A stretch of DNA of 64,000 bases from Alphaproteobacteria bacterium (lineage in GTDB: Bacteria; Pseudomonadota; Alphaproteobacteria; SHVP01), in contig VGES01000011.1 of NCBI GenBank assembly GCA_016869765.1, positions 11,401-75,400 of the forward strand. The letters are read 5' to 3'. Numbering within the stretch: position 1 is the first letter of the stretch; every line of letters starts with the position of its first letter. Of this stretch, positions 45,238 to 63,997 are shown one piece after another. A model generated the notes under the pieces. That model saw only the letters and a list, made by a program, of their open reading frames with translations, made no database searches and had not been told where the DNA came from. The position numbers and the translations under genes are program-made.

Positions 45238-46107
45238 ATGACGCTCAACGATCGGCCAGCCCCGGGGCCCAACGCCCAGCAAATCGACTTTTGGAACGGC
45301 GAAGAGGGCGAGAAATGGGCGGCCTCCAACCAACGCCTCGACCTGATGCTCGAACCCGTGGGCCGGCATCTCTTGGCTCGGGCGGCCCCGCGACCGGGCG
45401 AATCCGTGCTCGACATCGGTTGCGGCGGTGGCGCGACGTTGCTCGAACTCGCCCGCCACGTCGGGGACTCGGGCCGCGTGACCGGGATCGACATCTCCGG
45501 GCCCCTGCTGGCGATTGCGCGCGAGCGGGCGCAACGGGCCGCGGCTCCGGTGGATATCGTGTTGGCCGACGCCGAGACCCACCCGCTGCCCTCGGAACAG
45601 TTCGACCTCGCGCTCTCTCGTTTCGGAGTCATGTTCTTCGCAAATCCGGCCGCGGCCTTCGCCAACCTGCGGCGCGGGTTGCGCCCGGGCGGACGCTTGA
45701 CGTTCGTGTGCTGGCAGCCGATGGCGCGCAATCCCTGGATGACCGTGCCGCGGGAGGTCGTCATGCGTTATGTCACGCCACCGCCCCGCCCGGACCCTTT
45801 GGCCCCCGGCCCCTTTGCTTTCGCCGATCCGATGCGCGTGCGGAACATTCTCGCGGACGCCGCGTTCGGCGCCTTCCAGATCGAAGCCTTCGATACGGCG
45901 CTTACCGTGGGTGGCGGCACCCTCACGGGGGCGATCATGGCCACCGTCCGCGACGGTCCGATGGCCAACCTGATCGCACCGCTGCCGGCCGAGCGCCAGG
46001 CACAGCTGGAAGCGGATCTCCGCGACGCCTACCAGCCCTTCGTCCGCGACGACGGGACGATCGCGCTACCCGCCGCCTGTTGGGTCGTCACCGCGACCAG
46101 GGCCTAG
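45238..46107 (+). CDS. Class I SAM-dependent methyltransferase
   Basis: [32 protein letters not shown]. Confidence 0.9.
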
Positions 46108-46964
46108 GCTTCGAGGTAGGCATTGATTTCCGCGGCCATAGCCGCGGCCTTGTCCGCCGACGTCGCGTAGGAGTCGTAGCGACCGGTCTTCTTGAGGGTG
46201 GCATGCGGTACGAACGGCACGGTGTTCTTGTCGGCGAGCGTCGGCAGGCCGAGCTTGGCCAGGTCTCCGCACCGGGCGCGCCAATCCTGCGAGAACGACG
46301 CGCGCACGACCAGGTGCTGGGTTCGCGCCGCCTTGAGCACTTCGAGCGTCTTGTCGTGGAGTTCGTCCGCGCTGGGTAAGCCCACGGTGCGCGCGTGGGC
46401 GGCATCGCGTTCGAACCATGGCCAATAGAGCGAGGTGTCGCGGATGAACGTCCAGGTCTTCTGGAACTGCGTGCCGTGACCGTCGAACGCGATCAACGGC
46501 GTGTACCAATCACGCATCTTCTCGACCGGCGGCTCGTCGTAGGGTTGGTCCCACTTCACCTTGTCCTTGGGCCAAGGAAAGATGAACAACCCATCGAGAA
46601 TGTGTTTGCGGATGCGCTTGGGCGCGGCGATCGCCATCTCGATCGACGTATGGGCCCCGACCCGGTTGCCGTAGAGATCGAACCGTTCGAACCCGAGTGC
46701 GGTTGCCGTGCGCAGCAGCATGTCGGCGAACTGCGGTAAGGTCGGGTTGGCCGGCCGCGGTGTCACCGAGTCGCCCGTACCCGGCAGGTCGATGGCATAC
46801 ACCGGCCGCTTGTCCTCGATCTTCTCGATCAAGGGCACGATCCCGAGCGAAGTGCCCGGCGCCACATTGAGGACGATCAGCGGCGGCGCCTTGCGGTCCT
46901 TGCCACCGTAGCGAAAGTGCATCTGGCCCTCGTCGATGTCGACGAAGCCGCGTCGGATCGCCAT
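46104..46964 (-). CDS. Alpha/beta hydrolase-fold protein with non-canonical nucleophile elbow
   Basis: MAIRRGFVDIDEGQMHFR, AIDLPGTGDS, elbow reads LYGNRVG; GGGAGA RBS. Confidence 0.8.
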   Translation of the reverse strand: MAIRRGFVDIDEGQMHFRYGGKDRKAPPLIVLNVAPGTSLGIVPLIEKIEDKRPVYAIDLPGTGDSVTPRPANPTLPQFADMLLRTATALGFERFDLYGNRVGAHTSIEMAIAAPKRIRKHILDGLFIFPWPKDKVKWDQPYDEPPVEKMRDWYTPLIAFDGHGTQFQKTWTFIRDTSLYWPWFERDAAHARTVGLPSADELHDKTLEVLKAARTQHLVVRASFSQDWRARCGDLAKLGLPTLADKNTVPFVPHATLKKTGRYDSYATSADKAAAMAAEINAYLEA

Positions 46965-46986
46965 GACTTCTCCCTCGCGGTCGCGT

Positions 46987-48534
46987 TCAGTTCGCGAACG
47001 TGATCTCGTGATAGTTGATGTACTGATTCTCGTTGCGGAAGCCGACCACGTTGGGTTGCGTGGCGTGGATGTTATTGAACTCGACGAGGAACAGGTTGAT
47101 CGCCTCCTCATGTTGCAATTCGATCAACTGGTGAATCAACGAGCGCCGTTTCTCGACGTCGAACTCGACCAGAATCTGATCGAGGAGCGCCTGTTGCTTG
47201 GGATCGCATATGTAGGGCTTGGTCCCCTTGCCACACGACTGACTCGAGAACGCCGAGGTCGCGTCCATCGACGGACCCGCCGCCCACAGGTTGTGCCACA
47301 CGCCGGAATCCCAGTTCACCGGCAAGAACTTGGCGCGCCAGTCCGGGAACGGGATGGCCCGCACGTTCGAGGTGACGCCGATCTTGCGGAGGTCGGTCGT
47401 GATCTGCTGGAAGATCTCGCCGTCCGCCGGGAACGCCCCGGGCACGGCATCGAAATCGAACGCCAAGTTGGGATGCCCCGCACCGGCGAGGAGTTTCTTC
47501 GCACGCTCCGGATCGTAGGCGTACGGCTTGACGTTGGGATGATAACCGAAGGCGACCGATGCGACGCCCTGGCCCGTCGCGCTGCCACCAACCCCGCTCA
47601 ACAGGTTCTTCACCATGTTCTCTTTGTCGACGCCGTGGTTGAGCGCTTGGCGCACGCGCTTGTCCAGGAACGGCTTGATGTCGACGCCATCCTTGGCGTT
47701 GATCTGGGTGAACCCGAGGGTTAGCACCTGATGCCCTGGCTTGACGTCGATCTTGGCGTTGGCTTGGCGCAGCGCGGCGAGGTTGTCGGGCGCAGCGCCA
47801 AGGATAATGTCGAGTTGGCCCGAGACGAACGCCTGCATGCGGGGCGCGCGCTCGGGCATATCGAAGACCTCAAGATTGCGAATCCGGGGGCGCCGCCAGC
47901 TGTCCTCGAACGCGGTCAGCTTCGCCGAGGCATTGTCGACGAAACTCACCTGACGGTAGGGCCCGGTGCCGACGGGGCGATCTGTGAAGCCCGCGACATC
48001 CGTCCAGGCTTTGGGTTCGATGATGAGCACAATCGCCGCATCGTTGGGCAGAATCGGGTTCGGACGCGCGGTCGTCAGTTCCACGACGTTGCCACCTTTG
48101 GCCTCGACCTTGGTGATGCCGCCGACACGGCTCGAAACCGAGGCGCCCCTGGACTTGCCCTCGTCGGTCTGCAGCCAGGCGAACGTCGCCTGGATCGCCT
48201 GCGGCGTCAGCGCCTCGCCGTTGTGAAACTTGGTAGAGCGCAGCGTGAATTCCCAGGTCGTCGGGCTAGTGTTACGCCAACTGGTGGCGAGTGCCGGCAC
48301 GGTCTGGCCCTTCTCGTTCACGAACGTCATGGCATCGAAGATCGCGTGCCAGGTGAACATCACGGGCGTCGCGAACCCGGTGAACGGGTTGCCTCGCCCC
48401 GGAGGCAGGTCCCACGTTCCAACCCGCAGCGTCCGATCCTGCATCGGCTGGGCGCTCAACGGCGCAGATGCCACCGACCAACCGACGACGGCCAAAGCCG
48501 CCGCCTGAACCAGGCGCCCCGCATGCTTGTTCAT
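46987..48534 (-). CDS. ABC transporter substrate-binding protein, family 5 (copy 1)
   Basis: Signal peptide; PALATSW, KFHNGE, PVGTGPY, PFLDKRVRQALNH, YDPERAKKLL; GAGGA RBS. Confidence 0.92.
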   Translation of the reverse strand: MNKHAGRLVQAAALAVVGWSVASAPLSAQPMQDRTLRVGTWDLPPGRGNPFTGFATPVMFTWHAIFDAMTFVNEKGQTVPALATSWRNTSPTTWEFTLRSTKFHNGEALTPQAIQATFAWLQTDEGKSRGASVSSRVGGITKVEAKGGNVVELTTARPNPILPNDAAIVLIIEPKAWTDVAGFTDRPVGTGPYRQVSFVDNASAKLTAFEDSWRRPRIRNLEVFDMPERAPRMQAFVSGQLDIILGAAPDNLAALRQANAKIDVKPGHQVLTLGFTQINAKDGVDIKPFLDKRVRQALNHGVDKENMVKNLLSGVGGSATGQGVASVAFGYHPNVKPYAYDPERAKKLLAGAGHPNLAFDFDAVPGAFPADGEIFQQITTDLRKIGVTSNVRAIPFPDWRAKFLPVNWDSGVWHNLWAAGPSMDATSAFSSQSCGKGTKPYICDPKQQALLDQILVEFDVEKRRSLIHQLIELQHEEAINLFLVEFNNIHATQPNVVGFRNENQYINYHEITFAN

Positions 48535-48610
48535 GGATTCCTCCCCAGGCGTCGACGAAGGCCGACGCCTGAAAAACCCTAGCGGTCGGCCCCTAGGCCG
48601 GTCAACGCCG

Positions 48611-49282
48611 CTACTCGAAAACCACGCCCGGCAGGCTGCGGAGCTTGTCCTCGCTTTTGCTGCGCTGGTCGTAGGGAACCCCCGAGACCCGCCCGGCCCA
48701 GGACTTTTCGCCGGCGGCTTCGACCTTCGGGATGATCTCGGCGACGCGGTCGCGCGGCACGACGACGACGCCATCGTCGTCGCCCAGGACGAGGTCGCCG
48801 GGATAGACGATGACGCCACCGCAAATGACCGGGCTATTGAGCCAGCCCGGCTTTTCGGCACCACGGTTGCGGTTGACGGTGCCGCGGCAGAAGATCGGTA
48901 GGCCCTCGCGTTCGCGCAGCATCTGGCCGGTCAACACGACGCCGTCGACGACCACGCCGACGCAGCCGTTCTCCTTGGCGCCGCCCGCCATGCTGGCACC
49001 GAAGTTCGAACAGTCGGTGCGACCACCGGCGTCGATTACGAGCACATCGCCCGGCTTGCAGTACTTGGTCGCGACCCGGCTCATGAGCGAGTCGTCGGCG
49101 TATTCCGGTCGAACCGTGAAGGCCGGCCCGCAGATTTTCCAATCCTGCCGCAGCGGCTTGATGGCGCCGGCAACGCACTGCCGCGGGCCTACCTCGATCC
49201 CGGCGAGGCAAACGTGGACCTTTGCGGCACGATCGACCCAGGATTTCTCTGGACGCACGAAGTCCGTGACAACGCGATACAT
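48611..49282 (-). CDS. RraA/HMG-aldolase fold protein (copy 1, atypical active site)
   Basis: ICGPAFTV, KPGDVLVIDAGG, PVICGGVIVYPGDLVLGDDDGVVVVP. Confidence 0.88.
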   Translation of the reverse strand: MYRVVTDFVRPEKSWVDRAAKVHVCLAGIEVGPRQCVAGAIKPLRQDWKICGPAFTVRPEYADDSLMSRVATKYCKPGDVLVIDAGGRTDCSNFGASMAGGAKENGCVGVVVDGVVLTGQMLREREGLPIFCRGTVNRNRGAEKPGWLNSPVICGGVIVYPGDLVLGDDDGVVVVPRDRVAEIIPKVEAAGEKSWAGRVSGVPYDQRSKSEDKLRSLPGVVFE

Positions 49283-49293
49283 GGTCCCTCCGC

Positions 49294-49327: not shown

Positions 49328-49347
49328 GTGACGAACGCTCGAGGCAC

Positions 49348-50901
49348 TCAGTTCGTGAACGACATCTCGTGGTAGTTGATGAACTGATTGACGTTCTTGA
49401 ATCCCGCGACGTTCTTCTGAGTCGCGTGCAGGTTGGCGAACTGGACCAGGAACAGGTTGATCGCCTCGTCGTGCTGCAACTGGATCAGGTCGTGCAGAAC
49501 CTTTAGGCGTTTCGCCTCGTCGAACTCGCTGCTCGCCTGGTCATAAAGCGCCTGCTGCTTGGGATCGCAGATGTAGGGCTTGCCGCCTTTGAGGCAGGAC
49601 TGATTGAGGATCGCCGCTGTCGCATCCATGGCCGGCGCTGCCCCCCACAGGTTGTGCCACATCGGGCCGTCCCACTGCACCTGGAAGAACTTCGGCAGCC
49701 ATTGCGGGAACTGAACGACGCGGACCTCGGCATTGACGCCGATCCGCTTCAGTTCGGCCGCGGTCTGCTGGAAGATTTCTCCATCCGCCGGGAAAGCCCC
49801 AGGGACGGCCTCCACGATCACCGTACCCGGGATGCCGTTGCCGTATCCCGCTTCGGTCATCAGGCGCTTGGCCCGATCCGGATCATAGGCATAGGGCTTC
49901 ACGTTGGGATTGTGTCCAAAGGCCAGCGTCGAGACGCCCTGTCCCATGGCGATACCGCCGATGCCGCCAAGAAGCCCATCGACCATCGACTGCTTGTTGA
50001 CCGCATGGTTGATCGCCTGGCGCACGCGCTTGTCGGCGAACGGCTTTAGATCGACCCCCTCCTTGGCATTCGTGAATGTAAACGCCCAGGTGAGCACCTG
50101 CTGACCGGGCTGAATGTCGAGATTGGCTCCCATCGCCCGGATCGCCGGCACGTTGTCGGGCGTCAGCCCGAGGACGACATCCATCTGGTTCGACTGGAAG
50201 GCCGCCAACCGGGTCGGCCGTTCCGGCATCGCGCTTACTTCAAGATTGCGGATCCTGGGTCGCCGCCAGCTGTCCTCAGCCGCGGTGAACTTGACGAGAC
50301 CGGCCTGCCAATCGACGATCTTGTAGGACCCCGTGCCCACCGGTTTCTGGGTGAACGCCGCCAAGTCCTTCCACGCCTTCGGCTCGGGGATGAACACGGC
50401 CGCGATGTCGTTGGGCGCAATGGGATTGGGCTTCACGGTCTCGACCACGACGGTGGTCGCGTCGACCTTCTTGATGTCTGCGATCCAGGTGATGCGGCTC
50501 GAGACCGAGGGTCCCTTGGCCTTGCCCTCGTCGGATTTCAGCCAAGCAATGGCTTCAGCTAGGGACTCCGGCCCATTGACCTCGCCGTTGTGGAACTTTG
50601 TGTTGGGTCGCAGCTTGAACTCCCACGTCGTCGGCGACGTGTTGCGCCAACTTGCCGCGAGCGCGGGCTGGGCCTTGCCTTTCTCATCGATGAATGTGAG
50701 CGCATCGAACAGCGGGTGCCAGTAGAACACGCTCGGCGTACCCGTCCCAGTGTAGGGATTGCCGCGCCCGGGCGCCTCGCCCCACTGCGCCACGCGCAGC
50801 GTGCGCTCTTGCAGTGCCTGCGCCGACGCCGGGGCCTGGCTCAAGAGCCCGACGGATAAGGCGGCCGCGCTGGCAGCCGCCAACCACATGGTGCGTTTCA
50901 T
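49348..50901 (-). CDS. ABC transporter substrate-binding protein, family 5 (copy 2)
   Basis: Signal peptide MKRTMWLAAA...ASA; PALAASW, KFHNGE, PVGTGSY, PFADKRVRQAINH; close paralog of 46987-48534. Confidence 0.92.
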   Translation of the reverse strand: MKRTMWLAAASAAALSVGLLSQAPASAQALQERTLRVAQWGEAPGRGNPYTGTGTPSVFYWHPLFDALTFIDEKGKAQPALAASWRNTSPTTWEFKLRPNTKFHNGEVNGPESLAEAIAWLKSDEGKAKGPSVSSRITWIADIKKVDATTVVVETVKPNPIAPNDIAAVFIPEPKAWKDLAAFTQKPVGTGSYKIVDWQAGLVKFTAAEDSWRRPRIRNLEVSAMPERPTRLAAFQSNQMDVVLGLTPDNVPAIRAMGANLDIQPGQQVLTWAFTFTNAKEGVDLKPFADKRVRQAINHAVNKQSMVDGLLGGIGGIAMGQGVSTLAFGHNPNVKPYAYDPDRAKRLMTEAGYGNGIPGTVIVEAVPGAFPADGEIFQQTAAELKRIGVNAEVRVVQFPQWLPKFFQVQWDGPMWHNLWGAAPAMDATAAILNQSCLKGGKPYICDPKQQALYDQASSEFDEAKRLKVLHDLIQLQHDEAINLFLVQFANLHATQKNVAGFKNVNQFINYHEMSFTN

Positions 50902-51074: not shown

Positions 51075-52322
51075 ATGCGCTTCCTCGCGGTACTCGCATT
51101 GATGATGGTTTGCGCCGGCGGCGCTTGGGCACAATCGCGCACCACCATCATCGAATATGATGACAAGGGCCGGCCCACCGGTGCCAACACCCGTCAGGGC
51201 GGCAGCAACGCGACGGCCCCTGCCCGCGGGCCTGCGACCAACCGCAACCAGCCCCGCGCGATCGACAACGAGTTGATCGTCACCAATGCACCGGCCGACT
51301 TCGAAAACAGCGTCGGGGGGCTCGGTTTTCGCATCGTCGAGAAGATCGGCCTGCGCGCGCTCGACATGACGGTCTACCGGTTGCGCATCCCACCACAATC
51401 CAACGCCGACGATGCGAAAGCGGCCCTCGGCCGGCGCTACCCGGGCATCGTCGCCGACGTCAATCACCTCTACGATCCCTCGCAGGCCAACGAATCCCTG
51501 CGCAGCGGCAGTTTGGCCCGTGACATGGCGGGCTGGGAGCAGGTGCCGGAGACCTGTGGCAAAGGTCTCAAGCTCGGATCGATCGACGGGTTCGTCGACG
51601 AGAAGCATCCCGCCTTCACCAACCGAACGGTGCGCTTTCGCAACTTCCATCGCGAGAATTTGCCGCCCGGCGCCGCCAGCCATGGCACAGCGGTGGCGGC
51701 CCTCCTGGTCGGCCATCCGGCGAACCGCGGATTCGGGGGATTGTTGCCGGGGGCGACGCTCTACGCCGCCAACATGTTCGAGCAGGATGGCGGGCAGGAT
51801 TCGGGAAATGCGGTGGGATTTCTCAAGGCCCTCGACTGGATGGCCGAAGAAAAGGTCCACGTCGTCAACATGAGCATCGCCGGACCCGATAACACGGTGG
51901 TCAAGCTCGCCGTCGAGAAGGCCAAACGCAACGGCCTCGTCATGGTGGCCGCCGCGGGCAACTGGGGCACCGCCGATCGACCGGCGTTTCCCGGCGCCTA
52001 CCCGGCCGTCATCGCCGTAACCGCAATCGACGACAAGAAACTCGTCTATCAGGACGCCAACCGCGGCGACTACGTGGCGTTCGCGGCCCCGGGCGTGAAG
52101 GTGTGGACGGCGATCCCCGGCGGCGGCAAGTTCCAGAGCGGCACGTCGTTTGCCGCGCCGTTCGTCACCGCCCAGATCGCGCTCGATATCGCCAAGGGGG
52201 CCGAGCGCGATGCCAACGCGATCAAGGCCCGCTACGGCGCAAACGCGCTCGACCTCGGGAAGCCGGGCAAGGACGAGGTGTTCGGCTTCGGCATCATCCG
52301 CACGCCGCCCAAGTGCCAGTAG
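51075..52322 (+). CDS. Secreted S8 (subtilase) serine peptidase
   Basis: Signal peptide; triad motifs IDG, HGTAVA, SGTSFAAP; AAAGN oxyanion motif. Confidence 0.92.
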   Translation: MRFLAVLALMMVCAGGAWAQSRTTIIEYDDKGRPTGANTRQGGSNATAPARGPATNRNQPRAIDNELIVTNAPADFENSVGGLGFRIVEKIGLRALDMTVYRLRIPPQSNADDAKAALGRRYPGIVADVNHLYDPSQANESLRSGSLARDMAGWEQVPETCGKGLKLGSIDGFVDEKHPAFTNRTVRFRNFHRENLPPGAASHGTAVAALLVGHPANRGFGGLLPGATLYAANMFEQDGGQDSGNAVGFLKALDWMAEEKVHVVNMSIAGPDNTVVKLAVEKAKRNGLVMVAAAGNWGTADRPAFPGAYPAVIAVTAIDDKKLVYQDANRGDYVAFAAPGVKVWTAIPGGGKFQSGTSFAAPFVTAQIALDIAKGAERDANAIKARYGANALDLGKPGKDEVFGFGIIRTPPKCQ

Positions 52323-52325
52323 GCC

Positions 52326-52895
52326 CTAACGCTTCATGAAGCCTTTGGGATCGACCAGCTTGAACGTCTGGCCGTAGCGCTTCGACACATCGACCAGTTG
52401 CGTTAGACGCCCGCCCTTGCCTTTGAGCAGGGCGGTGAGGTCGGCCGTCGTGTTTGCGTCGGTCAGGAAAGCGAAGTTCGCGCCCTCTTTCTGGGCCGGG
52501 AAGCGTCCGGTGTGCCAGGTGCCCTTCCACATCATGATGCCGGTGCTGCCGTCCTGGTAGAGCGCCTTCATGTCCTCGGGCCGGGGGATCGCCTCCGGAT
52601 CATCCGGATCCGTCGGACGTGCGAACACGGTGACCGCGGCGTGATTGCTGAGCGGCACGAACGATTGCGTCACCAGGTAGTGACGCTCCATGTGCGTGAA
52701 CTCGAGCGTCGGCTTGTATTGAAACTTGGCGAACTCCAGTTCGAACTTGCCTTCGCACTCGAAGTCGACCGTCCAGGTCTTGGCGTTGGGGCTGTCGAAA
52801 TGCGGGCGTTCGTTGCGTTCGGCGATCACCTGTCCGAAGGGGGCAAACGACTCGGCGGTCAGCAGTTCGATCGGTAGTTCGAAAATCTTGGCCAT
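52326..52895 (-). CDS. Ureidoglycolate lyase (AllA)-like protein
   Basis: LTAESFAPFGQVI, MERH..TQSFVPL, GTWH. Confidence 0.8.
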   Translation of the reverse strand: MAKIFELPIELLTAESFAPFGQVIAERNERPHFDSPNAKTWTVDFECEGKFELEFAKFQYKPTLEFTHMERHYLVTQSFVPLSNHAAVTVFARPTDPDDPEAIPRPEDMKALYQDGSTGIMMWKGTWHTGRFPAQKEGANFAFLTDANTTADLTALLKGKGGRLTQLVDVSKRYGQTFKLVDPKGFMKR

Positions 52896-52945: not shown

Positions 52946-54070
52946 CTATTTGCGAGCGCCGAAGAACCACGCCTTGCCGCGCGTCGAACCCGATGTGCCG
53001 GTGTAGTGGCTCTCGACCCAGACATCGATGTAGTCCGATTCCGAGAAGCCGGCGGCGAGAAGCATCGCCTTCTGATCGAGATCGTGCATCTTGCTGATGA
53101 ACGGTTCGGCGTTGAAGTGCGTATCCCAGTCGTGCACCGCCGCGTCGAACAGCGGCAATCTGTCCCAGGGTGGTCCGTCGCCATGCAGCGTGATGCCCCC
53201 CGGCGCGAGCAGGCGGAAGCATTCGTTGAAGATGTTCTGCATCGCCCCGGTCGCGGTCTCGTGCAGCGTCGCATGGCTCACGATGACGTCGAAATAGCCG
53301 TCGGGGAACGACGTGTGTTCGGCGTCTTGCTGCGAGAAGTGAACGACCATACCGCGCGCCTCGGCCCGCGCATGGGCGTAGCGCAGCATCGGCGCCGCGA
53401 CGTCGATGGCATGAATCTCGGCGTCGGGGAACGCTTCGCAATAGGGCAGGGTCGAGTGCCCGACGGCGCAACCGAGGTCGAGAATGCGCTTGGGTTCGCG
53501 CGACAGCGCGCCCTTCAGATAGCGGATCGCCGTACGCCCGAACTCCTCCGTGTAGGGGCCGAGGCTGCCCACCGCGCGCACGAACGCGCCCTGGTCGTAG
53601 ACCGCGCCGGCGAAGAGATCGCCCGACCCGAGTTCGCCCTGGTAGTTGCCCGGCATGCCATGGATATCGACGGCCGTCACGTAACGCGGCATCGCGACGC
53701 TGGGATCGAGCCGAAGCGTGCCCCGGGCGCGGCGAGCGAGCCGATCGGCGGCGGCCGCCAACGCGGGGAGCTGTCGCTCCGTCGCGTCGCCGAAGGTATC
53801 CCACATCATCTCCTGAGCGAGCAGGCGAAGCGCACTTGATACCTGGCCGAAGCCGTCGCGCAGCAACGCGCGGCGCACTTCGTGACGATCCTTGGGCGGA
53901 CGCCCGCGCTCGCGCTCGAACGTTGGACGGACGCGGGACTCGTAGACCGTCCGTGCGTCGATCCGCGTTTCGCGAATCGCCTCCTGTCGCAAGGCGAACA
54001 CGAAGTCGCTGCGCGCTCCCGCATCGTGATCGAGAACGGGTAGTACAGCATGGCGTCCAGGCCTAAGCAT
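52946..54070 (-). CDS. Class I SAM-dependent methyltransferase with long N-terminal extension (copy 1)
   Basis: Start re-set to ATG 54070 (GGAG RBS); AVDIHGMPGNY, RILDLGCAVGHST, LHET, WDTHFNAEPF. Confidence 0.88.
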   Translation of the reverse strand: MLRPGRHAVLPVLDHDAGARSDFVFALRQEAIRETRIDARTVYESRVRPTFERERGRPPKDRHEVRRALLRDGFGQVSSALRLLAQEMMWDTFGDATERQLPALAAAADRLARRARGTLRLDPSVAMPRYVTAVDIHGMPGNYQGELGSGDLFAGAVYDQGAFVRAVGSLGPYTEEFGRTAIRYLKGALSREPKRILDLGCAVGHSTLPYCEAFPDAEIHAIDVAAPMLRYAHARAEARGMVVHFSQQDAEHTSFPDGYFDVIVSHATLHETATGAMQNIFNECFRLLAPGGITLHGDGPPWDRLPLFDAAVHDWDTHFNAEPFISKMHDLDQKAMLLAAGFSESDYIDVWVESHYTGTSGSTRGKAWFFGARK

Positions 54071-56455: not shown

Positions 56456-57127
56456 TCAGCGCCACTCGATGCCCTCGATCGCCTTCAGTTTCTCGATGTA
56501 GCCACGCTGATCGTAGGGTTTGGATCGGCCGGCGGGCGGGTAGGGTTGCGCCCGCCCCTGTCCGGCCGCCGTGAGCAATTTGTCCGCTTCGCGTAGCGGC
56601 AGCACCACAATTCCATCTTCGTCCGCCAGGATCAGATCGCCAGGATTAACGATCGCGCCGCCGCACACGATCGGCACGTTGATCGAGCCCGGGCCGTGGC
56701 CGCCGCCGATCGACTGGGCGACGGAGCCGCGCGCGAACACCGGCACGCCCTCGTGATCGATCAGTAGCTCGGTGGTCAACACCGCGCCGTCGACGATGAT
56801 GCCCGCGATGCCATGGGTCTTGGCACCCCAGGTCATGGTGGCGCCCCAGGCCGCGACCTCGGTGCGACCGCCGGCATCGATGACCAGCACGTCTCCAGGC
56901 TCGGCCATCAGCGTCGCGACTTGGCTCAACAGGGTATCGAACGGATTCTCGGCCGACACCGTCACCGCCGGGCCGGCGAAGCGCCAATCGCGTTTGAGCG
57001 GACGCAGCCCAGGGTCCATGACATTGCGCCGCCCCGCCTCGCCTCCGGCGATGCAGGCCCAGGTCTGGCGCGCCTTCTCGATCAGCGCCTTCGACGGCCG
57101 TTCGATCCTCGAGTTGATGACGTGCAT
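56456..57127 (-). CDS. RraA/HMG-aldolase fold protein (copy 2, atypical active site)
   Basis: FAGPAVTV, EPGDVLVIDAGG, PIVCGGAIVNPGDLILADEDGIVVLP. Confidence 0.88.
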   Translation of the reverse strand: MHVINSRIERPSKALIEKARQTWACIAGGEAGRRNVMDPGLRPLKRDWRFAGPAVTVSAENPFDTLLSQVATLMAEPGDVLVIDAGGRTEVAAWGATMTWGAKTHGIAGIIVDGAVLTTELLIDHEGVPVFARGSVAQSIGGGHGPGSINVPIVCGGAIVNPGDLILADEDGIVVLPLREADKLLTAAGQGRAQPYPPAGRSKPYDQRGYIEKLKAIEGIEWR

Positions 57128-57172
57128 GGCCCCTCCCTATGGTGTTTGATGTCTCACAGTTTGGAATCCGCC

Positions 57173-57850
57173 ATGCCGTTTGTCGCCGTCGAACATCACG
57201 GGTCGGTCACAGTCTTGACCCTCGATCGCCCGCCGGTGAACGCCATCGCCCTTGCAATTTGCGAGCAACTGTTCACCACCCTGGAGAAAATCGTCGCGAA
57301 ACCGCCGGCTGGTGGCCTCGTCGTGATCGGCCGCGGCCGGGCCTTCTCCGCCGGAGCCGATCTGAAGGAGGTTCCCACCTATGACGCGGCGCAGCGGTCG
57401 CGGCTCGACGAGACGTTCAGCCGGGCGATCCGAGCGCTCCTGGCCCTGCCCACTCCGGTCGTGGCCGCCCTCAACGGCCACGCCATCGGCGGCGGCCTGG
57501 TACTCGCCCTGGCGGGCGACCACCGTATCGCGGCAGAACGGCCGGCCGAATTCGGGTTCCCCGAGGCGGCCGTCGGCATCGCCTTCCCGCCGGTGCCCAT
57601 GGCGATCATCCGTGGCGCGATGAACCCAGTCGCGCTCAATCGCCTGGCCCTGGATGCCACCGCGCGATGGCCGCTCGACCGGGCCCGGCAGGAGGGGCTC
57701 ATCGACGTGGTGGTGCCCGCCGATCGCCTCCTGGAGGCGGCGATCGGTGAAGCAAAGCGACTCTCGGCAGCCCCAGGCTATGCGCTGGTCAAGCAGCAGT
57801 TGCGCGCCACCACCTTGGCCGAGGTCGACCGGTTGCTCGCTAACCGGTGA
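57173..57850 (+). CDS. Enoyl-CoA hydratase/isomerase family protein
   Basis: LDRPPVNA, AFSAGADL, NGHAIGGG, FPEAAVG; only the second catalytic Glu is present (isomerase-like); start 57173 or 57149. Confidence 0.88.
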   Translation: MPFVAVEHHGSVTVLTLDRPPVNAIALAICEQLFTTLEKIVAKPPAGGLVVIGRGRAFSAGADLKEVPTYDAAQRSRLDETFSRAIRALLALPTPVVAALNGHAIGGGLVLALAGDHRIAAERPAEFGFPEAAVGIAFPPVPMAIIRGAMNPVALNRLALDATARWPLDRARQEGLIDVVVPADRLLEAAIGEAKRLSAAPGYALVKQQLRATTLAEVDRLLANR

Positions 57851-58154
57851 GGTCGTTGTTGCCCACCGAAATGATGACGAGCGTGTCCTCGATCGCCTCT
57901 TCGCGATGCTTCTGCAACGGCGGCGTGATCGCGACGTCCCCAGGACCAAGCACGCGGTCGTCGACCTTCCAACTGCCGGAGACAACCGTCAGCTGTTCCC
58001 AGCCCGGGTGGCCGTGGGGCTCGAAGACCACGCCCTTTTTCACACGATAGGCGACCGTGTAGGCATTCGCACCACCGCGCCAAATCTCGAACTTCTCCGA
58101 ACCCGGATTGCTCGTCGGCTGGAACTTGTACTCGGCAAGTGTTCCGTACTGCAT
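57840..58154 (-). CDS. Small cupin domain protein
   Basis: MQYGTLAEY with GAGGG RBS; PHGHPGWEQLTVVSG, GDVAITPPLQKH. Confidence 0.82.
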   Translation of the reverse strand: MQYGTLAEYKFQPTSNPGSEKFEIWRGGANAYTVAYRVKKGVVFEPHGHPGWEQLTVVSGSWKVDDRVLGPGDVAITPPLQKHREEAIEDTLVIISVGNNDLTG

Positions 58155-58278: not shown

Positions 58279-58356
58279 TATTCGGTCATGGCGCCGTGCA
58301 TCCAAGGCTGGGTGCAGCGGCCAAGGCCGTATCTGTACTTCCACGACCTGCGCTGC
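58279..58356 (+). pseudogene. Relic 3' end of a family-5 binding-protein paralog
   Basis: Translates YSVMAPCIQGWVQRPRPYLYFHDLRC versus YAVMAPCMRGWLWRPVPYAYWRDLRC (61008-61085); 17/26 identical by hand alignment. Confidence 0.8.
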
Positions 58357-58390
58357 GTAGGCAGCGCGGGTCGTCATTTTCGAGGATTGC

Positions 58391-58419
58391 GGGCGGCATG
58401 CAACGCCGCCCTTTCTTTT
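58391..58419 (+). terminator. Intrinsic terminator downstream of the relic
   Basis: GGGCGGC-ATGCAAC-GCCGCCC-TTTCTTTT. Confidence 0.75.
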
Positions 58420-59378
58420 CAGACCACGCCGAGGCGGAAACAGGCGGCGGCGCTGTCGGCCCCGATCGGGTCAAGTCCCGGCGAACGCTGCAAACAATCG
58501 GCAATCGCGATCGGGCATCGGCTGGCAAACACGCAGCCCTTCGGCAGGTTGAGCGGACTCGGGATCTCCCCTTCGAGACGCACGCGGTCGCCGCGACGGC
58601 CGCTCACCGGCAACCGCGCAGACAGGAGCGCCCGCGTGTAGGGATGCGCGGGTCGTTCGAACACCCGCTGCGAGGGGCCCATCTCGACGATGCGCCCGAG
58701 GTAGAGCACCAGCACGCGGTGACTGATGAAACGCACAGTTTCGAGATCATGCGAGATGAACAGCATCGCCGCCCCGGTTTCTCGCTGCAGCTCGGCCAGG
58801 AGATCGAGGATGTCCGCGCGCACCGACAAGTCGAGCGAACTCGTGGGTTCGTCGAGGATGATGAGCCGCGGCTTCGTCGCGATCGCGCGCGCAATACACA
58901 CCCGCTGCAATTGCCCGCCCGAGAGTTCGTGGGGAAAGCGATCGAGCGCTTCGCGACTGAGCCGCACGCGATCGGCCAGGGCCTCGACGCGCTGGCGCCG
59001 CGCGCCACCGTCGAGTCCGCTATGCAACTTGAGCGGCTCCTCGATGAGCCGGCCGATCCGCATCCGCGGGTTCAGGGCCCCCCACGGATTCTGAAACACG
59101 ATCTGAATCTTGTCGCGCAAAGTCCGGCACTGCGCCGTCGACCATCTTGCGATGTCCTCGCCGGCAAACACCACGGCGCCCTCCGAGGGGGTCAACAGGC
59201 GGGCGATGGCGCGGCCGATGGTCGACTTGCCGGAACCGCTTTCTCCCACGAGGCCCACCGTTTCTCCGACCCCGAGCGAAAACGAGACACCATTGACGGC
59301 GAAGATCGTGTCACCGGACAGCGGCGCGCGGAAACGCTTCGTCAGGTTGTCAACCGTAAGCAACGCGGTCTCGGCCAT
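58419..59378 (-). CDS. Peptide-type ABC transporter ATP-binding subunit (OppF/DppF-like)
   Basis: Start re-set to MAETALL (ATG 59378); GESGSGKST, LSGGQLQR, LDEPT, HPYTRALL, C-terminal Cys cluster. Confidence 0.93.
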   Translation of the reverse strand: MAETALLTVDNLTKRFRAPLSGDTIFAVNGVSFSLGVGETVGLVGESGSGKSTIGRAIARLLTPSEGAVVFAGEDIARWSTAQCRTLRDKIQIVFQNPWGALNPRMRIGRLIEEPLKLHSGLDGGARRQRVEALADRVRLSREALDRFPHELSGGQLQRVCIARAIATKPRLIILDEPTSSLDLSVRADILDLLAELQRETGAAMLFISHDLETVRFISHRVLVLYLGRIVEMGPSQRVFERPAHPYTRALLSARLPVSGRRGDRVRLEGEIPSPLNLPKGCVFASRCPIAIADCLQRSPGLDPIGADSAAACFRLGVV

Positions 59379-59510: not shown

Positions 59511-61097
59511 ATGATCCGACAACGCTCGATCCGTCAATTGGCCATTGCGGCCCTTTTGGGGGCCACCGCCATCAGCTCGCCCATTGCGAGCGCCCAGGCA
59601 CAACAGAACACGTTGGTGATCGCCGGGATCACGACGCCGAAAGGATTCGACGGTGACGTGTTTCTGCCGGGCACGTTGGAATCGGTCGTCAACATCAACG
59701 AGGGACTGACCGAATATGGACGCACCAAGGACAGCCAGGGGCGCGACGTGCTCGATGCCGCAAACGTCTCGCCCCATCTCGCCGAAAGCTGGACCGTCTC
59801 GCCGGACGGCAAGACCTATACCTTCAAGCTGCGCAGCGCCAAGAGCCCGTTCGGCAACGAACTGATCGCCGACGACCTCATCTTCGGCATGCGCAAATCG
59901 GAAGAACAGAAACGAACCGGCCTTTTCCTCAAGACCGTGGCGCTCATCGATACCATCGAAAAGGTGAGCGACAAGGAAATCCGCTACAACCTGAAATCGC
60001 CCAATCGCTCCTTCCTCCGCGTGCTGCAACTCTACACACCCGGTATCTACGACAGCCGAAAGGCTCGCGAGTTTGCCACCGCCGACGACCCGTTCGCCAC
60101 GAAGTGGCTGGGCCAGAACACGGCGGCCTATGGCGCTTATCACCTGCAGGAGAACCGCCAGGGCGAAGGCGCCATCTTCGTCGCCAACCCGAACTACTTC
60201 GGGCCCAAGCCGTTCTACAACCGCGTGGTGTTCCGCGAGGTGCCCTCGCCGGCCAATCGCGCCGCCCTGGTCCGAAACGGCGACGCCCAGTGGGCCGAGC
60301 AGGTACCGATGCAATCGATTCCGGACCTGATGCGCGACCGCAACGTCCAGGTCCAGCAAGTCATCGGGACCGGTACGGCACACGCCCTGCTGAACGCCAA
60401 GTACAAGCCGTTCGACGACGTGCGGGTGCGACGCGCCATCATCCAGGCGACGGACTTCGAGGCGATCAACAAGACTGTGTTCCTCGGTCTCGGAACCCGC
60501 TCGCGGTCATTCCTGCCTTCGATCCTGCCCGGCCACATTGAAGCCTATCGCTACGAGACCAACTACGACGCCGCGAAGAAGCTGCTCACCGAGGCCGGTT
60601 ATCCGAATGGCGTCGATGTTACGCTCGAGTACGCGGACAACTACTGGTGGGAGGAGCAGTTCTCCATCCAGGTGAAGGAGTCGGCGGCGAAGGCAGGCAT
60701 TCGCGTCACGCCCAAGCGCATCCCGTCGACCGAGATGAACACCCGTCGCGGCCCCGGACAGCGGACGATCCCGTTCTTCACGTACCAAACGACTCCGTTC
60801 GTCCTCGATCCCGGCTACGCGTTCTATCTCTCGGCCCATACAGCGGGCTCCAACAACACCGCCGCCTACTTCAAGAAGGAGATGGACGACCTGATCGATC
60901 AGATCGTGGTGGAAAAAGACGACGCCAAGTGGAAGTCGTTGTTGGCCGATGCCCAACGGATGCATGCCGAGGATGCGATCTACCTCGACACCTACTACCC
61001 CGGCGTCTACGCGGTGATGGCGCCGTGCATGCGCGGCTGGCTGTGGCGTCCGGTCCCGTACGCCTACTGGCGCGATCTGCGTTGCGAGCGTCGCTGA
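59511..61097 (+). CDS. ABC transporter substrate-binding protein, family 5 (third, distinct type)
   Basis: GGAGG RBS; signal peptide ending AQA; PHLAESWTVSPDGKTYTFKLR, PFDDVRVRRAI. Confidence 0.92.
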   Translation: MIRQRSIRQLAIAALLGATAISSPIASAQAQQNTLVIAGITTPKGFDGDVFLPGTLESVVNINEGLTEYGRTKDSQGRDVLDAANVSPHLAESWTVSPDGKTYTFKLRSAKSPFGNELIADDLIFGMRKSEEQKRTGLFLKTVALIDTIEKVSDKEIRYNLKSPNRSFLRVLQLYTPGIYDSRKAREFATADDPFATKWLGQNTAAYGAYHLQENRQGEGAIFVANPNYFGPKPFYNRVVFREVPSPANRAALVRNGDAQWAEQVPMQSIPDLMRDRNVQVQQVIGTGTAHALLNAKYKPFDDVRVRRAIIQATDFEAINKTVFLGLGTRSRSFLPSILPGHIEAYRYETNYDAAKKLLTEAGYPNGVDVTLEYADNYWWEEQFSIQVKESAAKAGIRVTPKRIPSTEMNTRRGPGQRTIPFFTYQTTPFVLDPGYAFYLSAHTAGSNNTAAYFKKEMDDLIDQIVVEKDDAKWKSLLADAQRMHAEDAIYLDTYYPGVYAVMAPCMRGWLWRPVPYAYWRDLRCERR

Positions 61098-61125
61098 AGC
61101 CGAGCTTGTGTAATCAGGGCCAGAC

Positions 61126-62142
61126 GTGACCGTCCTTCAGTTTGTCGCTCGGCGTCTGGCCCTGACGATCCCGCTCCTGCTCGGGATCATCTTCATCACG
61201 TTCATGCTTATCCGCATCGGTGGTCAGGATGCGGTCGGGATGCTGACCAGTCCGCTGGCCTCCAAGCAGGAGGTCGACGCCATCCGCGCCAGCCTCGGCC
61301 TCGACCGCCCGCTTCTCGAGCAGTTCGCCATCTACATCGGCAACGTCCTTCAGGGCGACCTCGGCAATTCGTGGCAGTCGAAACAGCCGGTGCTTGGCGA
61401 AATCCTCCGGCGCCTCCCGGCCTCGATCGAACTCCTGTTCCTTTCGATCATTCTCGGGGCCGCGATCGGTATTCCGATCGGGCTGCGCGCCGCGATGCGG
61501 CCGAACGGCCTGTTCGATCAGGTCAGCCGGTTCGTCTCGCTGATCGGCTTTTCGGTTCCGACCTATTGGATGGCGCTGATGGCGCTGTTCGTGTTCTATC
61601 TCGGGCTGCGTTGGACGCCGCCGCCGATGGGGCGGATCAGCATCGCGGCTTTCCCACCGAAACCGGTCACCGGCAGCTATTTTCTCGACAGCCTGTTTGC
61701 CGGCGATTGGTCGGCGGCCTCCTCCGCTGGCCACTATCTCATCCTTCCCGTCGCCGTGTTCTCGCTTATCGTCGCCGCGCCGATCATCAAGCAGACCCGA
61801 GCGATCGCCATCGAGATACTCAACAGCGACTACGTGCGCCTGGCGCGCCTCTACGGGTTTCGGCCGCAGACCATCCGCCGCCTGACGCTGCGCAACGCCT
61901 TCACCCCGATCGCCACCTACATCGGCTCCGAGCTCGCGACCCTGTTGGCCGCGGTGTCCTTGGTCGAGCTCGTGTTTTCGTGGGGCGGCCTCGGCCAATG
62001 GGGCCTGAATGCCATCCTGTTCGGCGATTTCGCGGCCGTGCAGGGCTACGTGCTCACGCTCGCGATCTTTGCCACGACGATCTACCTGCTCGTCGACGTC
62101 GCGGTTCTGGTTCTCGAACCACGGAGCGCGATCAGCAAATGA
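61126..62142 (+). CDS. ABC permease (OppB/DppB-like)
   Basis: LGLDRPL..QF, GDLGNSW, RLPASIEL, DYVRLARLYG, ELVFSWGGLG. Confidence 0.93.
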   Translation: MTVLQFVARRLALTIPLLLGIIFITFMLIRIGGQDAVGMLTSPLASKQEVDAIRASLGLDRPLLEQFAIYIGNVLQGDLGNSWQSKQPVLGEILRRLPASIELLFLSIILGAAIGIPIGLRAAMRPNGLFDQVSRFVSLIGFSVPTYWMALMALFVFYLGLRWTPPPMGRISIAAFPPKPVTGSYFLDSLFAGDWSAASSAGHYLILPVAVFSLIVAAPIIKQTRAIAIEILNSDYVRLARLYGFRPQTIRRLTLRNAFTPIATYIGSELATLLAAVSLVELVFSWGGLGQWGLNAILFGDFAAVQGYVLTLAIFATTIYLLVDVAVLVLEPRSAISK

Positions 62143-63029
62143 CCACGGCTTTCGTCCAGACCCGTCAGCCGCGCGGCCTGGTCCTCGCGTGGGCGATGCT
62201 CGTGGGCCTCACCCGACGCAGCCCGACGTTCGTGCTCGGCACGGCAATCGTCCTGGTGTTTGCCGCGCTGGCCGCCCTCGCCCCGTGGTTGACCGACTAC
62301 CGCCCGACCCAGACCTTCCCGGACCATGTGTTGTCGGGACCGAGCGCGCAGTTCTGGTTCGGCACCGACGGCAATGGTATGGACGTGTTCTCGCGCGTCA
62401 TCCACGGCAGCCAATACGCCTTCGGCATCGCCATTCCGGCGCTTCTCCTGATGATGGTGATTGGCGTGCCCGCGGGGCTCATCGCCGGCTATCGCGGCGG
62501 GGCGATCGACGATCTATTGTTGCGCACCTTCGATGTGCTGCGCGCGTTCCCGACGATCGTGCTCGCGCTCGCCGTCGTCGCCGCCACCGGCCAGTCGATC
62601 GTAATCGTCGTCCTGGTCATCGGTTTTCTCGAAGCCCCGATCTTCGCCCGCATCGTGCGCTCCGAAGTCCTTGCGCTGCGTTCGAGCGAACTCGTGGAAG
62701 CCGCCGTGGCCGTCGGCAACTCGACATGGCGCGTGATGCTCGTGCATGTGTTGCCGAACTCGATCCGCGGCGCCACGGCGCAAATGGCGATTCGCATGGC
62801 CTGGGCGATCCGCGTGTCCACGACACTCGCGTTCATCGGCGTCGGCATACAAGCGCCGGCACCGGAGTGGGGCGTGATGATCCGCCAGGGTGCCGAGTAC
62901 ATCAATTCGGGCGAGTGGTGGATTGCCACCTTCCCCGGCGTCGCGCTCGTCGGCCTCGTGCTCGGCCTCAACCTGTTTGGCGACGGCGCCCAGGATCTGC
63001 TCGATCCCAAGCATAGCGACAGCCGATGA
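62139..63029 (+). CDS. ABC permease (OppC/DppC-like)
   Basis: ATGA overlap; WFGTDGNGMDVFSR, ARIVRS, EAA loop, HVLPN, PEWG. Confidence 0.93.
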   Translation: MTTAFVQTRQPRGLVLAWAMLVGLTRRSPTFVLGTAIVLVFAALAALAPWLTDYRPTQTFPDHVLSGPSAQFWFGTDGNGMDVFSRVIHGSQYAFGIAIPALLLMMVIGVPAGLIAGYRGGAIDDLLLRTFDVLRAFPTIVLALAVVAATGQSIVIVVLVIGFLEAPIFARIVRSEVLALRSSELVEAAVAVGNSTWRVMLVHVLPNSIRGATAQMAIRMAWAIRVSTTLAFIGVGIQAPAPEWGVMIRQGAEYINSGEWWIATFPGVALVGLVLGLNLFGDGAQDLLDPKHSDSR

Positions 63030-63997
63030 GCCTGCTCGAGGTCGAAAACCTCCATACGCATTTCGTCAAGCGCGACCTACGCAACCAGGTACGGGTCGCA
63101 CGGGCGCTGAACGGCGTGTCCTTCCGCGTCGATCGCGGCGAGATCGTCGGGTTGGTCGGCGAAAGCGGGGCCGGAAAGTCACTCACCGCCTCGTCGATCA
63201 TGGGGCTCCTCGGCAAGAGCGCTCGCATCGTTCAAGGCTCGATTCGCTTCCAGGATCAGGAATTGGTCGGCATGACGGCTGAGCAACTCGATGCGGTGCG
63301 CGGCTCCGAGATCACGATGATCGTGCAGTCGCCGATCACCTCGCTCGATCCGCTCAGCCGAGTGGGTGATCAGTTGATTCGGGTGCAGCGCGAGCATCAC
63401 GCGGTCGCGCGCGAAGAGGCCCGTCGCCGGGCGATCGAGATGCTGATGACGGTCAAGATTCCCGACCCAGAACGGCGCATGCGTGCCTGGCCCCATGAAC
63501 TATCGGGCGGCATGGCGCAGCGCATCCTCATCGCCATGGCCCTGATAAACGCGCCCAAGCTGTTGATCGCCGATGAGCCCACGACCGGGCTCGACGTCAC
63601 CGTTCAGGCCCAGGTGCTCGACCTGCTGAACGACCTCGTACGCTCGCGCGACATGGCGGCAATCATCATCACGCACGATCTCGGCATCGTGGCCAACTAC
63701 TGCACGCGCGTCGCCGTGATGTTCTCGGGCGCGATCGTCGAAACCGGTCCGACCCGGGAGGTGTTCGCCCGACCACGGCACCCCTACACCCAGGCCCTTC
63801 TCGATTCCGTTCCCGAGCGGGCGAAACGCCGCGGCGGCGGCCAATTGAGCGGCGCACCGCCCAATCTCTATGCCCTGCCCACGGGCTGTCTCTACAACTA
63901 CCGCTGTTCGAAGGCGACGGAGACCTGTCGCGGGGTGCCGCCGCTCATCGATGTCGGGCCCGACCACCGGGCACTCTGCCACCACGCCAGCGCTTAA
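63026..63997 (+). CDS. Peptide-type ABC transporter ATP-binding subunit (OppD/DppD-like)
   Basis: GESGAGKS, LSGGMAQR, ADEPTT, HPYTQALL, C-terminal Cys cluster. Confidence 0.94.
   Translation: MSLLEVENLHTHFVKRDLRNQVRVARALNGVSFRVDRGEIVGLVGESGAGKSLTASSIMGLLGKSARIVQGSIRFQDQELVGMTAEQLDAVRGSEITMIVQSPITSLDPLSRVGDQLIRVQREHHAVAREEARRRAIEMLMTVKIPDPERRMRAWPHELSGGMAQRILIAMALINAPKLLIADEPTTGLDVTVQAQVLDLLNDLVRSRDMAAIIITHDLGIVANYCTRVAVMFSGAIVETGPTREVFARPRHPYTQALLDSVPERAKRRGGGQLSGAPPNLYALPTGCLYNYRCSKATETCRGVPPLIDVGPDHRALCHHASA

Follow-up and report, generated by a model that had tools for sequence, protein, structure and literature searches.

We analysed a window of 64,000 nucleotides (nt) from the genome of an uncultured lake-water alphaproteobacterium (contig VGES01000011.1 of assembly GCA_016869765.1, positions 11401-75400; G000:C11:11401-75400 in our own numbering). 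The region under study, at window positions 45238-63997, encodes family-5 periplasmic solute-binding proteins (SBPs; SBP_bac_5, here SBP5 when the whole family is meant), a Dpp/Opp-type importer, RraA-fold proteins, an alpha/beta-hydrolase-fold protein (ABH) and members of a family of long S-adenosylmethionine (SAM)-dependent methyltransferases (MTs). We propose that it is a vertically inherited chromosomal island for the import and transformation of small solutes, a reading to which we give an even chance. Its conserved unit is a module of SBP, RraA-like and ABH-like genes together with the adjoining long methyltransferase and a subtilase of family S8.

According to this proposal, the island would couple solute import to the cytoplasmic transformation of small compounds. 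The orphan binding proteins SBP1 and SBP2 would pass related solutes to a shared permease, and the remodelled RraA and alpha/beta folds may have taken on a new catalytic or ligand-binding role in the SBP-RraA-ABH module. The long methyltransferases would be active SAM-dependent small-molecule enzymes working on the imported compounds or their products. We infer this activity on imported solutes because the motifs of the family are conserved and because one long copy, MT4, ends the importer operon. As for the substrate class, our guess is acids derived from peptides or amino acids, with cyclic amides or N-heterocycles as a possibility. Since the island proteins are small and soluble, the question of their function is directly testable.

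While SBP-dependent uptake islands are ordinary, three features of this one are unusual: a methyltransferase family with 61 copies in the genome, a RraA clade with exchanged catalytic residues, and an ABH family with Arg or His at the nucleophile elbow. All three families are unnamed, and they are found together beside importers.

To call open reading frames (ORFs) we combined six-frame lists with third-position G+C (G+C3), and starts were placed from the translations. Pfam scans covered 34 chosen ORFs (at least 153 aa) at 43442-63997 and 24 flanking ORFs, and the NCBIfam scan covered 19 ORFs. The DNA between 48611 and 57127 is contained in 20 sequencing runs, every one of them labelled as a lake-water metagenome and none of them an RNA run.

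The original prediction, made from the letters alone, had listed three family-5 binding proteins and a relic fourth, one permease/ATPase set, three homologous long methyltransferases and an unrelated plain one, two RraA proteins without the Arg-Asp pair (RD-less), a hydrolase with an Arg elbow, an AllA-like lyase, a cupin and a crotonase. All of these are present. The binding proteins are found by Pfam and in the translations and the relic by tblastn; the AllA-like protein (PF04115), the cupin and the crotonase are Pfam matches; and the permease/ATPase set consists of DppB, DppC, DppD and an inverted DppF-type ATPase. The list left out the S8 subtilase, and MT4 lies just outside the region. 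The two operon-like runs are also as described: SBP1, RraA1, SBP2 and ABH are co-directional and lie 65, 76 and 22 nt apart, and MT2, MT1 and the AllA-like gene follow each other with gaps of 11 and 50 nt. The genes of the importer operon, SBP3-DppB-DppC-DppD-MT4, are separated by 28, -4, -4 and 16 nt. That the region holds no regulator is true of the 34 scanned ORFs; a GntR/UTRA gene does lie 6 kb downstream.

Gene order within the bacterial family

We compared the region with 13 regions fetched from other genomes of the same uncultured alphaproteobacterial family. The order MT0 / ABH / RraA1 / SBP1 / S8 / long MT / RraA2 is kept in genomes G012, G008, G003 and G016, and the core is also syntenic in G002, where it is split over two contigs. 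Overall, the core is syntenic in at least six genomes belonging to two other genera. Across these three genera the orthologues are 45-79% identical to the window proteins (MT0 45-52%, ABH 58-66%, RraA1 74-79%, SBP1 54-58%, S8 47-55%). The subtilase is oriented divergently from SBP1, and this pairing is kept in all relatives examined.

The methyltransferase of the core is MT2. Its orthologue is 50-63% identical and adjoins RraA2 co-directionally in G012, G008, G003, G016 and G002; the spacing is 26 nt in G012, measured on the called ORFs, and 59 nt in G008 and 70 nt in G002, measured on the tblastn matches. The best G012 match of MT3 is a different copy (L202, 61% identity), about 100 kb away from the block. 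The crotonase (enoyl-CoA hydratase family, ECH) stands beside RraA2 in G002 as well. The block of one genus (g4) is without SBP2 and without the AllA-like gene.

Compared with these relatives, and judging from the sequences, the window appears to have gained the inverted MT3, MT1 with the AllA-like gene, SBP2, and the block made of ECH-cupin-DppF and SBP3-DppBCD-MT4. The extra MT, SBP and AllA copies would then be old additions of a kind seen genome-wide.

The description of the region as accessory, which was part of the original prediction, fails. The G+C of the region is 0.64-0.67 against 0.648 for the genome (3.99 Mb, 164 contigs), and the region is syntenic with housekeeping neighbours such as an ABC-F ATPase. 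On these grounds of composition and gene order we reject a horizontally acquired or mobile island.

Parts of the core also recur elsewhere. A SBP5 gene, a RD-less RraA gene and a gene for an ABH without the nucleophile Ser (Ser-less) lie together, no more than 6 kb apart, three times in the genome, on contigs C11, C97 and C19. In metagenome contigs, SBP5 lies directly beside a RD-less RraA gene on L111, L116 and L117, and does not on L110 and L112.

RraA and alpha/beta-hydrolase folds with replaced catalytic residues

RraA1 and RraA2 both score well above the PF03737 cut-off (Table 1). The best solved match of RraA2 is 3noj, the 4-hydroxy-4-methyl-2-oxoglutarate/4-carboxy-4-hydroxy-2-oxoadipate (HMG/CHA) aldolase (E 6e-24 over residues 31-190). 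Where 3noj reads DAGVRD, both window proteins read DGxVLT, with Leu in place of Arg-123 and Thr in place of Asp-124, as the original prediction of RD-less proteins implies. Asn-71, His-75, Thr-145 and Lys-147 of 3noj are replaced too, Arg-40 is kept and Glu-199 is not alignable. According to the description of this aldolase, Arg-123 is essential and stabilises the pyruvate enolate, and the metal ligands are Asp-124 and Glu-199 (PMC5065237).

The exchange is not confined to the window. In an alignment of 121 rows (RraA1 and the 120 best database relatives of RraA2), DGxVLT is found in 31 and RD in 76, and further variants, reading MN, occur on other metagenome contigs. Six RraA-like genes are present in the genome (one of RD type, three LT, one ES and one ID), and LT-type proteins are found in 12 of the 17 genomes of the bacterial family, this one included. 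Because LT is conserved in the orthologues, it marks a conserved clade and not decay.

The window RraA proteins therefore share the fold family of HMG/CHA aldolase (LigK/PcmE) and its Arg-40. They differ from it in context, since their genes lie in operons with family-5 binding proteins and not with aromatic ring-cleavage genes. This bears on whether the region encodes a described pathway, either protocatechuate/gallate 4,5-cleavage with a RraA-type HMG/CHA aldolase or ureide catabolism with AllA. Both the LigK/PcmE and the ureidoglycolate lyase models are among the NCBIfam matches, and relatives of the RraA proteins are named 4-hydroxy-4-methyl-2-oxoglutarate aldolase at JGI. The scores, however, are low: the RraA proteins reach 91.8 and 100 bits with TIGR02798 (cut-off 304.5) and 106.8 and 113 bits with NF006731 (cut-off 179), and the AllA-like protein stays far below the cut-offs of all eight NCBIfam ureidoglycolate lyase models (best 49 against 160 bits). 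In addition, the essential Arg and one metal ligand, to follow the roles given in PMC5065237, are replaced by Leu and Thr, and no other gene of either pathway was seen among the Pfam-scanned ORFs of the region. We regard a described pathway as the least probable of the explanations considered here, with next to no likelihood. The original claim that the region matches no known pathway stands in so far as none emerged from the NCBIfam scan or from the literature outside subscription journals.

The ABH protein departs from its fold family at the nucleophile elbow. It passes the PF00561 cut-off (Table 1) and aligns to the solved hydrolases 6i8w and 7al5, where its GNRVG stands opposite GNSMG and GHSMG and Arg takes the place of Ser, as had been predicted. 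Of its 120 best relatives, 96 carry His at the nucleophile position (elbow motif G[STA]HTG), 22 carry Arg (GNR[VI]G) and 2 carry Met. In an alignment of 28 rows, in which the window protein was set beside its 25 paralogues from the genome and two proteins of G012, the position is His in 16, Arg in 4, Glu in 3 and four other residues once each. The Arg elbow is conserved in ABH orthologues and is hence not a sign of decay. Accordingly, the shared non-canonical active sites of the original prediction are real in both families.

In comparison with serine hydrolases of the COG0596 type (3-oxoadipate enol-lactonase, BioH-like esterases, fluoroacetate dehalogenase), the Abhydrolase_1 fold is shared and strand beta-5 with the elbow can be aligned, whereas ABH and its 120 best relatives have no Ser, Asp or Cys at the nucleophile position. 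The G[STA]HTG group is widespread (Roseomonas, Hydrogenophaga, Chelativorans, Acuticoccus and others), and we know of no characterised member.

A long methyltransferase family with many paralogues

The long methyltransferases have the Rossmann fold, motif I and beta-2 acidic residue of class I methyltransferases and score 71-80 bits with PF13649. A search with MT3 returned 1601 relatives at E <= 0.001 among 5669 candidates, and those that are named bear only the names class I SAM-dependent methyltransferase or UbiE. By sequence, solved chains match only the Rossmann core (best 5wp5, E 3.9e-14, residues 185-312).

The AlphaFold2 model of MT3 (predicted local distance difference test score 87.5) has a helical N-domain and a class I domain. 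Its top whole-chain Foldseek matches in the pdb set are Rv2258c, DsyB, RedM and SgvM (E 7.7e-11 to 1e-8), with a whole-chain template modelling score of about 0.47 and a root-mean-square deviation (rmsd) of 15-17 A over the full alignment. With VIA, the model gave Z 18.2 and rmsd 3.0 A over 182 aligned residues, all in the Rossmann part (residues 152-370). Foldseek, VIA and ESM Atlas searches with the whole model found generic class I methyltransferases or unnamed clusters and no convincing named whole-chain match.

The family has invariant motifs of its own, AVDIHxMPGNY, HETS and DWDTHxNxEPF. Among the invariant residues of MT3 are H137, which lies in a loop modelled with low confidence, the pair H271-E272 immediately behind strand beta-4, H297 and E323. 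All 61 copies of the genome retain H137, H271, E272 and E323 as well as two Gly of motif I and the Asp of beta-2. His271 might serve as a base or as a metal ligand. SgvM, a metal-dependent alpha-keto-acid C-methyltransferase of the SgvM/MppJ type and a fold match of MT3 (Foldseek E about 1e-8, VIA Z 15.6), has the same two-domain plan and binds Zn through H244 and H296 at the base of its Rossmann domain (PMC10502145). Their spacing of 52 residues equals that of H271 and E323 in MT3, an agreement in spacing without superposition and a lead only.

The helical N-domain and class I Rossmann domain are shared with two-domain small-molecule methyltransferases (Rv2258c, DsyB, RedM, SgvM/MppJ and plant-type O-methyltransferases). 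The long family differs from these in its own invariant motifs, in neighbourhoods that are catabolic and not biosynthetic, and in its 61 copies in this one genome.

With MT3 as the query, tblastn matched 31 contigs of the genome, with 59 hits of full length and 6 partial ones. All-against-all clustering of 6384 G+C3-filtered ORFs places the long methyltransferases as the third-largest gene family (61 members), after SBP_bac_5 (82) and the ATP-binding cassette (ABC) ATPases (74) and before the short-chain dehydrogenases/reductases (SDRs; 53). Ser-less ABH genes number 26, and 21 genes form a double-ABH family. Nearest paralogues of the methyltransferase are 28-78% identical (median 53%, for the 59 copies with a partner). 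MT3 itself is 44-47% identical to the other three long copies of the island, MT1 and MT2 among them (tblastn). The repeated duplication seen by the original prediction finds no support as a local event: the paralogues are old, and their families are expanded across the genome.

The expansion also extends beyond this genome. All 16 other genomes of the bacterial family carry the long methyltransferase, in 4 to at least 48 copies. When 15 copies fetched from G012 are compared with this genome, the best match has a median identity of 65% and the second-best 53%, with 12 distinct best targets. This pattern fits old, individually maintained paralogues, so that much of the expansion would predate the genus split and copies would have been kept individually. 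Of 301 genomes sampled from the class, 14 have a match at E <= 1e-60, counting this genome; among 1.84 billion representatives worldwide, no more than 496 clusters at 50% identity pass E <= 1e-30.

Long methyltransferase genes often stand in tandem pairs or triplets (contigs C113, C39, C8, C25, C85, C6 and C9; three in a row on C113 and C39). Another alphaproteobacterial genome holds at least six of them within about 62 kb (G213:C1:5667711-5729234).

To describe the neighbourhoods outside the bacterial family, we took the 80 best methyltransferase homologues in species-representative genomes and searched their loci with the window proteins (phmmer). ABH and CoA-transferase are each found at 13 of the 80 loci. 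Unbiased clustering of the neighbours gives hydantoinase A (HyuA) at 24 loci, hydantoinase B (HyuB) at 22, FAD_binding_4 at 18, luciferase-like monooxygenase and Zn-dependent alcohol dehydrogenase at 13 each, alpha/beta-hydrolase at 12 and CoA-transferase III at 11, besides isochorismatase, amine oxidase, the major facilitator superfamily (MFS) and TonB receptors. The commonest arrangement is a co-directional MT-HyuA-HyuB run. The contexts of the long methyltransferase elsewhere are thus catabolic, with transporters. The hydantoinase A/B, isochorismatase-like, amine-oxidase and FAD_binding_4 neighbours may fit, loosely, the original idea of an N-heterocyclic or ureide substrate.

The MT gene stands directly before hydantoinase A/B on the same strand in Binatia, Gammaproteobacteria and others (among them loci L013, L015, L019, L021, L026, L032, L036, L066 and L072), often with an isochorismatase-like gene or a CoA-transferase nearby. 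In the literature outside subscription journals, we found no described pathway with the MT-hydantoinase A-hydantoinase B trio, and no paper on the long methyltransferase family or on the island. At 11 cyanobacterial loci (Nostoc and relatives; L022, L030, L033, L035, L038, L045, L046, L048, L051, L056 and L059) the methyltransferase is part of a fixed arrangement of PALP enzyme, MT and CAP-domain protein, and most of these loci also hold carbonic anhydrase, SUI1, a 3'-5' exonuclease and rhodanese.

Several of our results weigh against a common function of the island genes. At the 80 outside loci, RraA, the AllA-like protein and the small cupin were not found once (0/80 each), and SBP5 was found at just three. 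The co-occurrence of the gene families, which had been suggested as a check, holds in the same order in G012, G008, G003, G013, G016 and G002 and does not extend, for these three families, beyond the bacterial family. Seen only inside one family, it may be synteny by descent. The block of G012 also holds unrelated genes for ABC-F, MFS, BLUF and AsmA, with GntR, acyl-CoA dehydrogenase and PrpD further on; with ABC-F, AsmA and BLUF in the syntenic block, descent alone could have preserved the order of the core. In G013, the core has no MT between RraA2 and S8. An old duplication of the whole C11 module may have produced the loci on C97 and C19, which would then not be independent. Among the metagenome contigs, L116 and L117 seem to be closely related, and L113 stems from the same population as this genome and is not independent, because its ABH is 100% identical over 263 aa to that of C97. 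Some adjacency is expected by chance with 82 SBP5, 61 MT and 26 Ser-less ABH genes in 3.99 Mb: SBP5 takes up 15 of 316 neighbour slots within three genes of 58 listed methyltransferase copies, about twice its genome share, which is estimated and not counted. A SAM-consuming step is moreover unusual in a catabolic route.

Some of these points feed the strongest alternative. Under it the genes have no pathway in common, and the region would be a mosaic of unrelated functions of one or two genes each, neighbours only through descent and the density of the families. The diversity of methyltransferase neighbours here and elsewhere and the strand switches, which cut the region into at least eight transcription units, agree with it. 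A mosaic does not readily account for a gene order kept at 45-79% protein identity over three genera, for the tight co-directional spacing of RraA2 and its MT, of the SBP1-RraA1-SBP2-ABH run and of DppD and MT4 (16 nt), or for the SBP5/RraA/ABH triad at three loci and the pairing of SBP5 with RD-less RraA on contigs of other organisms. We consider it rather unlikely, and a good deal less so than the other alternatives.

A wider possibility, which we offer as speculation and think unlikely, goes beyond the import-and-transform island itself. Lake bacteria might follow a so far unrecognised strategy in which SAM-dependent methylation traps or activates many different dissolved organic compounds (cyclic amides or N-heterocyclic acids, for example) as they are taken up and broken down. 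The step would be carried out by a dedicated family of methyltransferases with a His/Glu site, present as 40-60 individually conserved paralogues per 3-4 Mb genome, beside neofunctionalised RraA and ABH folds, which would join orphan binding proteins in a module of a new kind. If the substrates of the methyltransferases are indeed imported compounds, the processing of dissolved organic matter by freshwater bacteria would gain methylation as a new theme.

The predicted complex of MT2 and RraA2 scored 0.00 in two runs, which were made without controls and speak neither for nor against binding.

Importer, subtilase and gene map

The Dpp/Opp-type importer set is complete, with SBP_bac_5, two BPD_transp_1 permeases and two ATPases with an oligo_HPY C-terminal domain. 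In this it equals the Dpp/Opp/Nik-type importers with orphan binding proteins. It differs from them in that one ATPase is inverted beside a relic SBP and the operon ends in a methyltransferase, and the genome has 82 SBP5 genes against 23 DppB-like and 15 DppC-like permease genes. SBP1, SBP2 and SBP3 each have a signal-peptide-like N-terminus, and SBP2 is 59% identical to SBP1. The relic is a stretch of 26 aa with 65% identity to SBP3 residues 503-528 (E 2.9e-8, tblastn).

The S8 subtilase carries the D-G, HGT, AAGN and GTS motifs and a signal-peptide-like N-terminus, all read by eye in the translation. Together with the importer, it could point to plain peptide nutrition, in which the subtilase would cut extracellular protein, the SBPs and the Dpp permease would import the peptides, and the other genes would be bystanders. 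The conserved divergent pairing of the presumably secreted S8 with SBP1 speaks for this. So do the best NCBIfam scores of SBP3 and the permease/ATPase genes, which are with dipeptide, oligopeptide and nickel models, and the solved relatives of SBP1, of which 5u4o (an unnamed binding protein) is the nearest, followed by DppA, the top named one, and AccA. Nevertheless, the SBPs score far under every curated NCBIfam cut-off (for example 122 against 1005 bits for DppA), and agrocinopine, agropinic-acid and nickel binders match SBP1 about as well as DppA does among solved chains. All importer components lie below the curated equivalog cut-offs, and no substrate class is supported by the scores. Peptide nutrition would also leave unexplained the RraA-like and ABH-like genes inside the SBP operon and the methyltransferase at the end of the importer operon. 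We hold it to be distinctly unlikely.

The same subtilase has weak matches to models of the maturation proteases PatA/PatG and QhpE (52.8 and 67.3 bits, both below cut-off). With several methyltransferases nearby, and with LahSB and CypM, methyltransferases of ribosomally synthesised and post-translationally modified peptides, among the fold matches, one could think of a biosynthetic or tailoring cluster that makes, for example, a methylated peptide natural product; the subtilase would then be its maturation protease, and tailoring would fall to the methyltransferases. The transporter, on the other hand, is an SBP-dependent importer and not an exporter, and the subtilase appears to be a secreted one. 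The scan of 34 ORFs turned up no core biosynthetic enzyme, a precursor peptide not having been searched for; the methyltransferase neighbours elsewhere are catabolic and the fold matches are generic class I. A cluster of this type is very improbable.

The features of the region are listed in Table 1. The small cupin is a single-copy gene in the genome.

Table 1 Features of the region and of its downstream flank (window positions)
Feature	Position	Strand	Basis
MT0, plain 289-aa class I SAM methyltransferase, unrelated to the long family	45238-46107	+	PF08241 84.3 bits
ABH, alpha/beta-hydrolase-fold protein with Arg at the nucleophile elbow (GNRVG)	46104-46964	-	PF00561 28.9 bits (cut-off 25.8)
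SBP2, family-5 periplasmic binding protein	46987-48534	-	PF00496 200 bits
RraA1, RraA-fold protein without Arg-Asp (DGVVLT)	48611-49282	-	PF03737 110 bits (cut-off 24.5)
SBP1, family-5 binding protein, in conserved core	49348-50901	-	PF00496 208 bits
S8 subtilase, predicted secreted, in conserved core	51075-52322	+	PF00082 104.6 bits (cut-off 21.8)
AllA-like protein, closes the MT2-MT1 run	52326-52895	-	PF04115 58.1 bits (cut-off 23)
MT1, long methyltransferase	52946-54070	-	Pfam; 61% identical to MT2 in an alignment
MT2, long methyltransferase	54082-55206	-	orthologue of the copy next to RraA2 in relatives
MT3, long methyltransferase, 370 aa	55336-56448	+	helical N-domain (about residues 1-125) and class I Rossmann domain
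RraA2, RraA-fold protein without Arg-Asp (DGAVLT)	56456-57127	-	PF03737 118.9 bits (cut-off 24.5)
Crotonase / enoyl-CoA hydratase (ECH) family protein	57149-57850	+	PF00378 117.8 bits
Small cupin (Cupin_7 / Cupin_2)	57840-58154	-	PF12973 36.5 bits
Relic C-terminus of a fourth, SBP3-like gene	58279-58356	+	tblastn
Terminator-like hairpin 3' of the SBP relic	58391-58411	+	7 G-C pairs and T-run
DppF/OppF-type ABC ATPase, inverted relative to the importer operon	58419-59378	-	PF00005, PF08352; NF008453 345.6 bits (cut-off 408)
SBP3, family-5 binding protein	59511-61097	+	SBP_bac_5
DppB	61126-62142	+	Pfam/NCBIfam
DppC	62139-63029	+	Pfam/NCBIfam
DppD	63026-63997	+	Pfam/NCBIfam
MT4, fourth long methyltransferase, past the region end	64014-65177	+	16 nt after DppD
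GntR/UTRA regulator, 6 kb downstream, same contig	69954-70685		Pfam; syntenic in relatives

When the whole window was scanned with Rfam, no riboswitch appeared near the methyltransferases; the sole match is a bacterial RNase P RNA of class A at 19266-19652 (-), with 313 bits. A scan for sigma-70 promoters gave no site where 2.4 were expected.

On the other side of the region, 3.5 kb upstream of the island, a set of methyl-cycle genes occupies 36202-41773 (-) and encodes MetH (1229 aa), methylenetetrahydrofolate reductase and a fusion of an ArsR helix-turn-helix domain with a methyltransferase. These genes may be relevant to a genome with 61 SAM methyltransferases. Further upstream, at 31558-35726, lie three tandem SDR genes, a DUF4437/Cupin_7 protein gene and a polysaccharide-deacetylase-like gene, whose family has 12 members in the genome, five of them within 5 kb of a long methyltransferase. 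Two genes for ParE-family toxins (PF05016) are found at 29480-29752 (+) and 35909-36196 (+), with 42 and 78 bits, and are presumably parts of toxin-antitoxin pairs.

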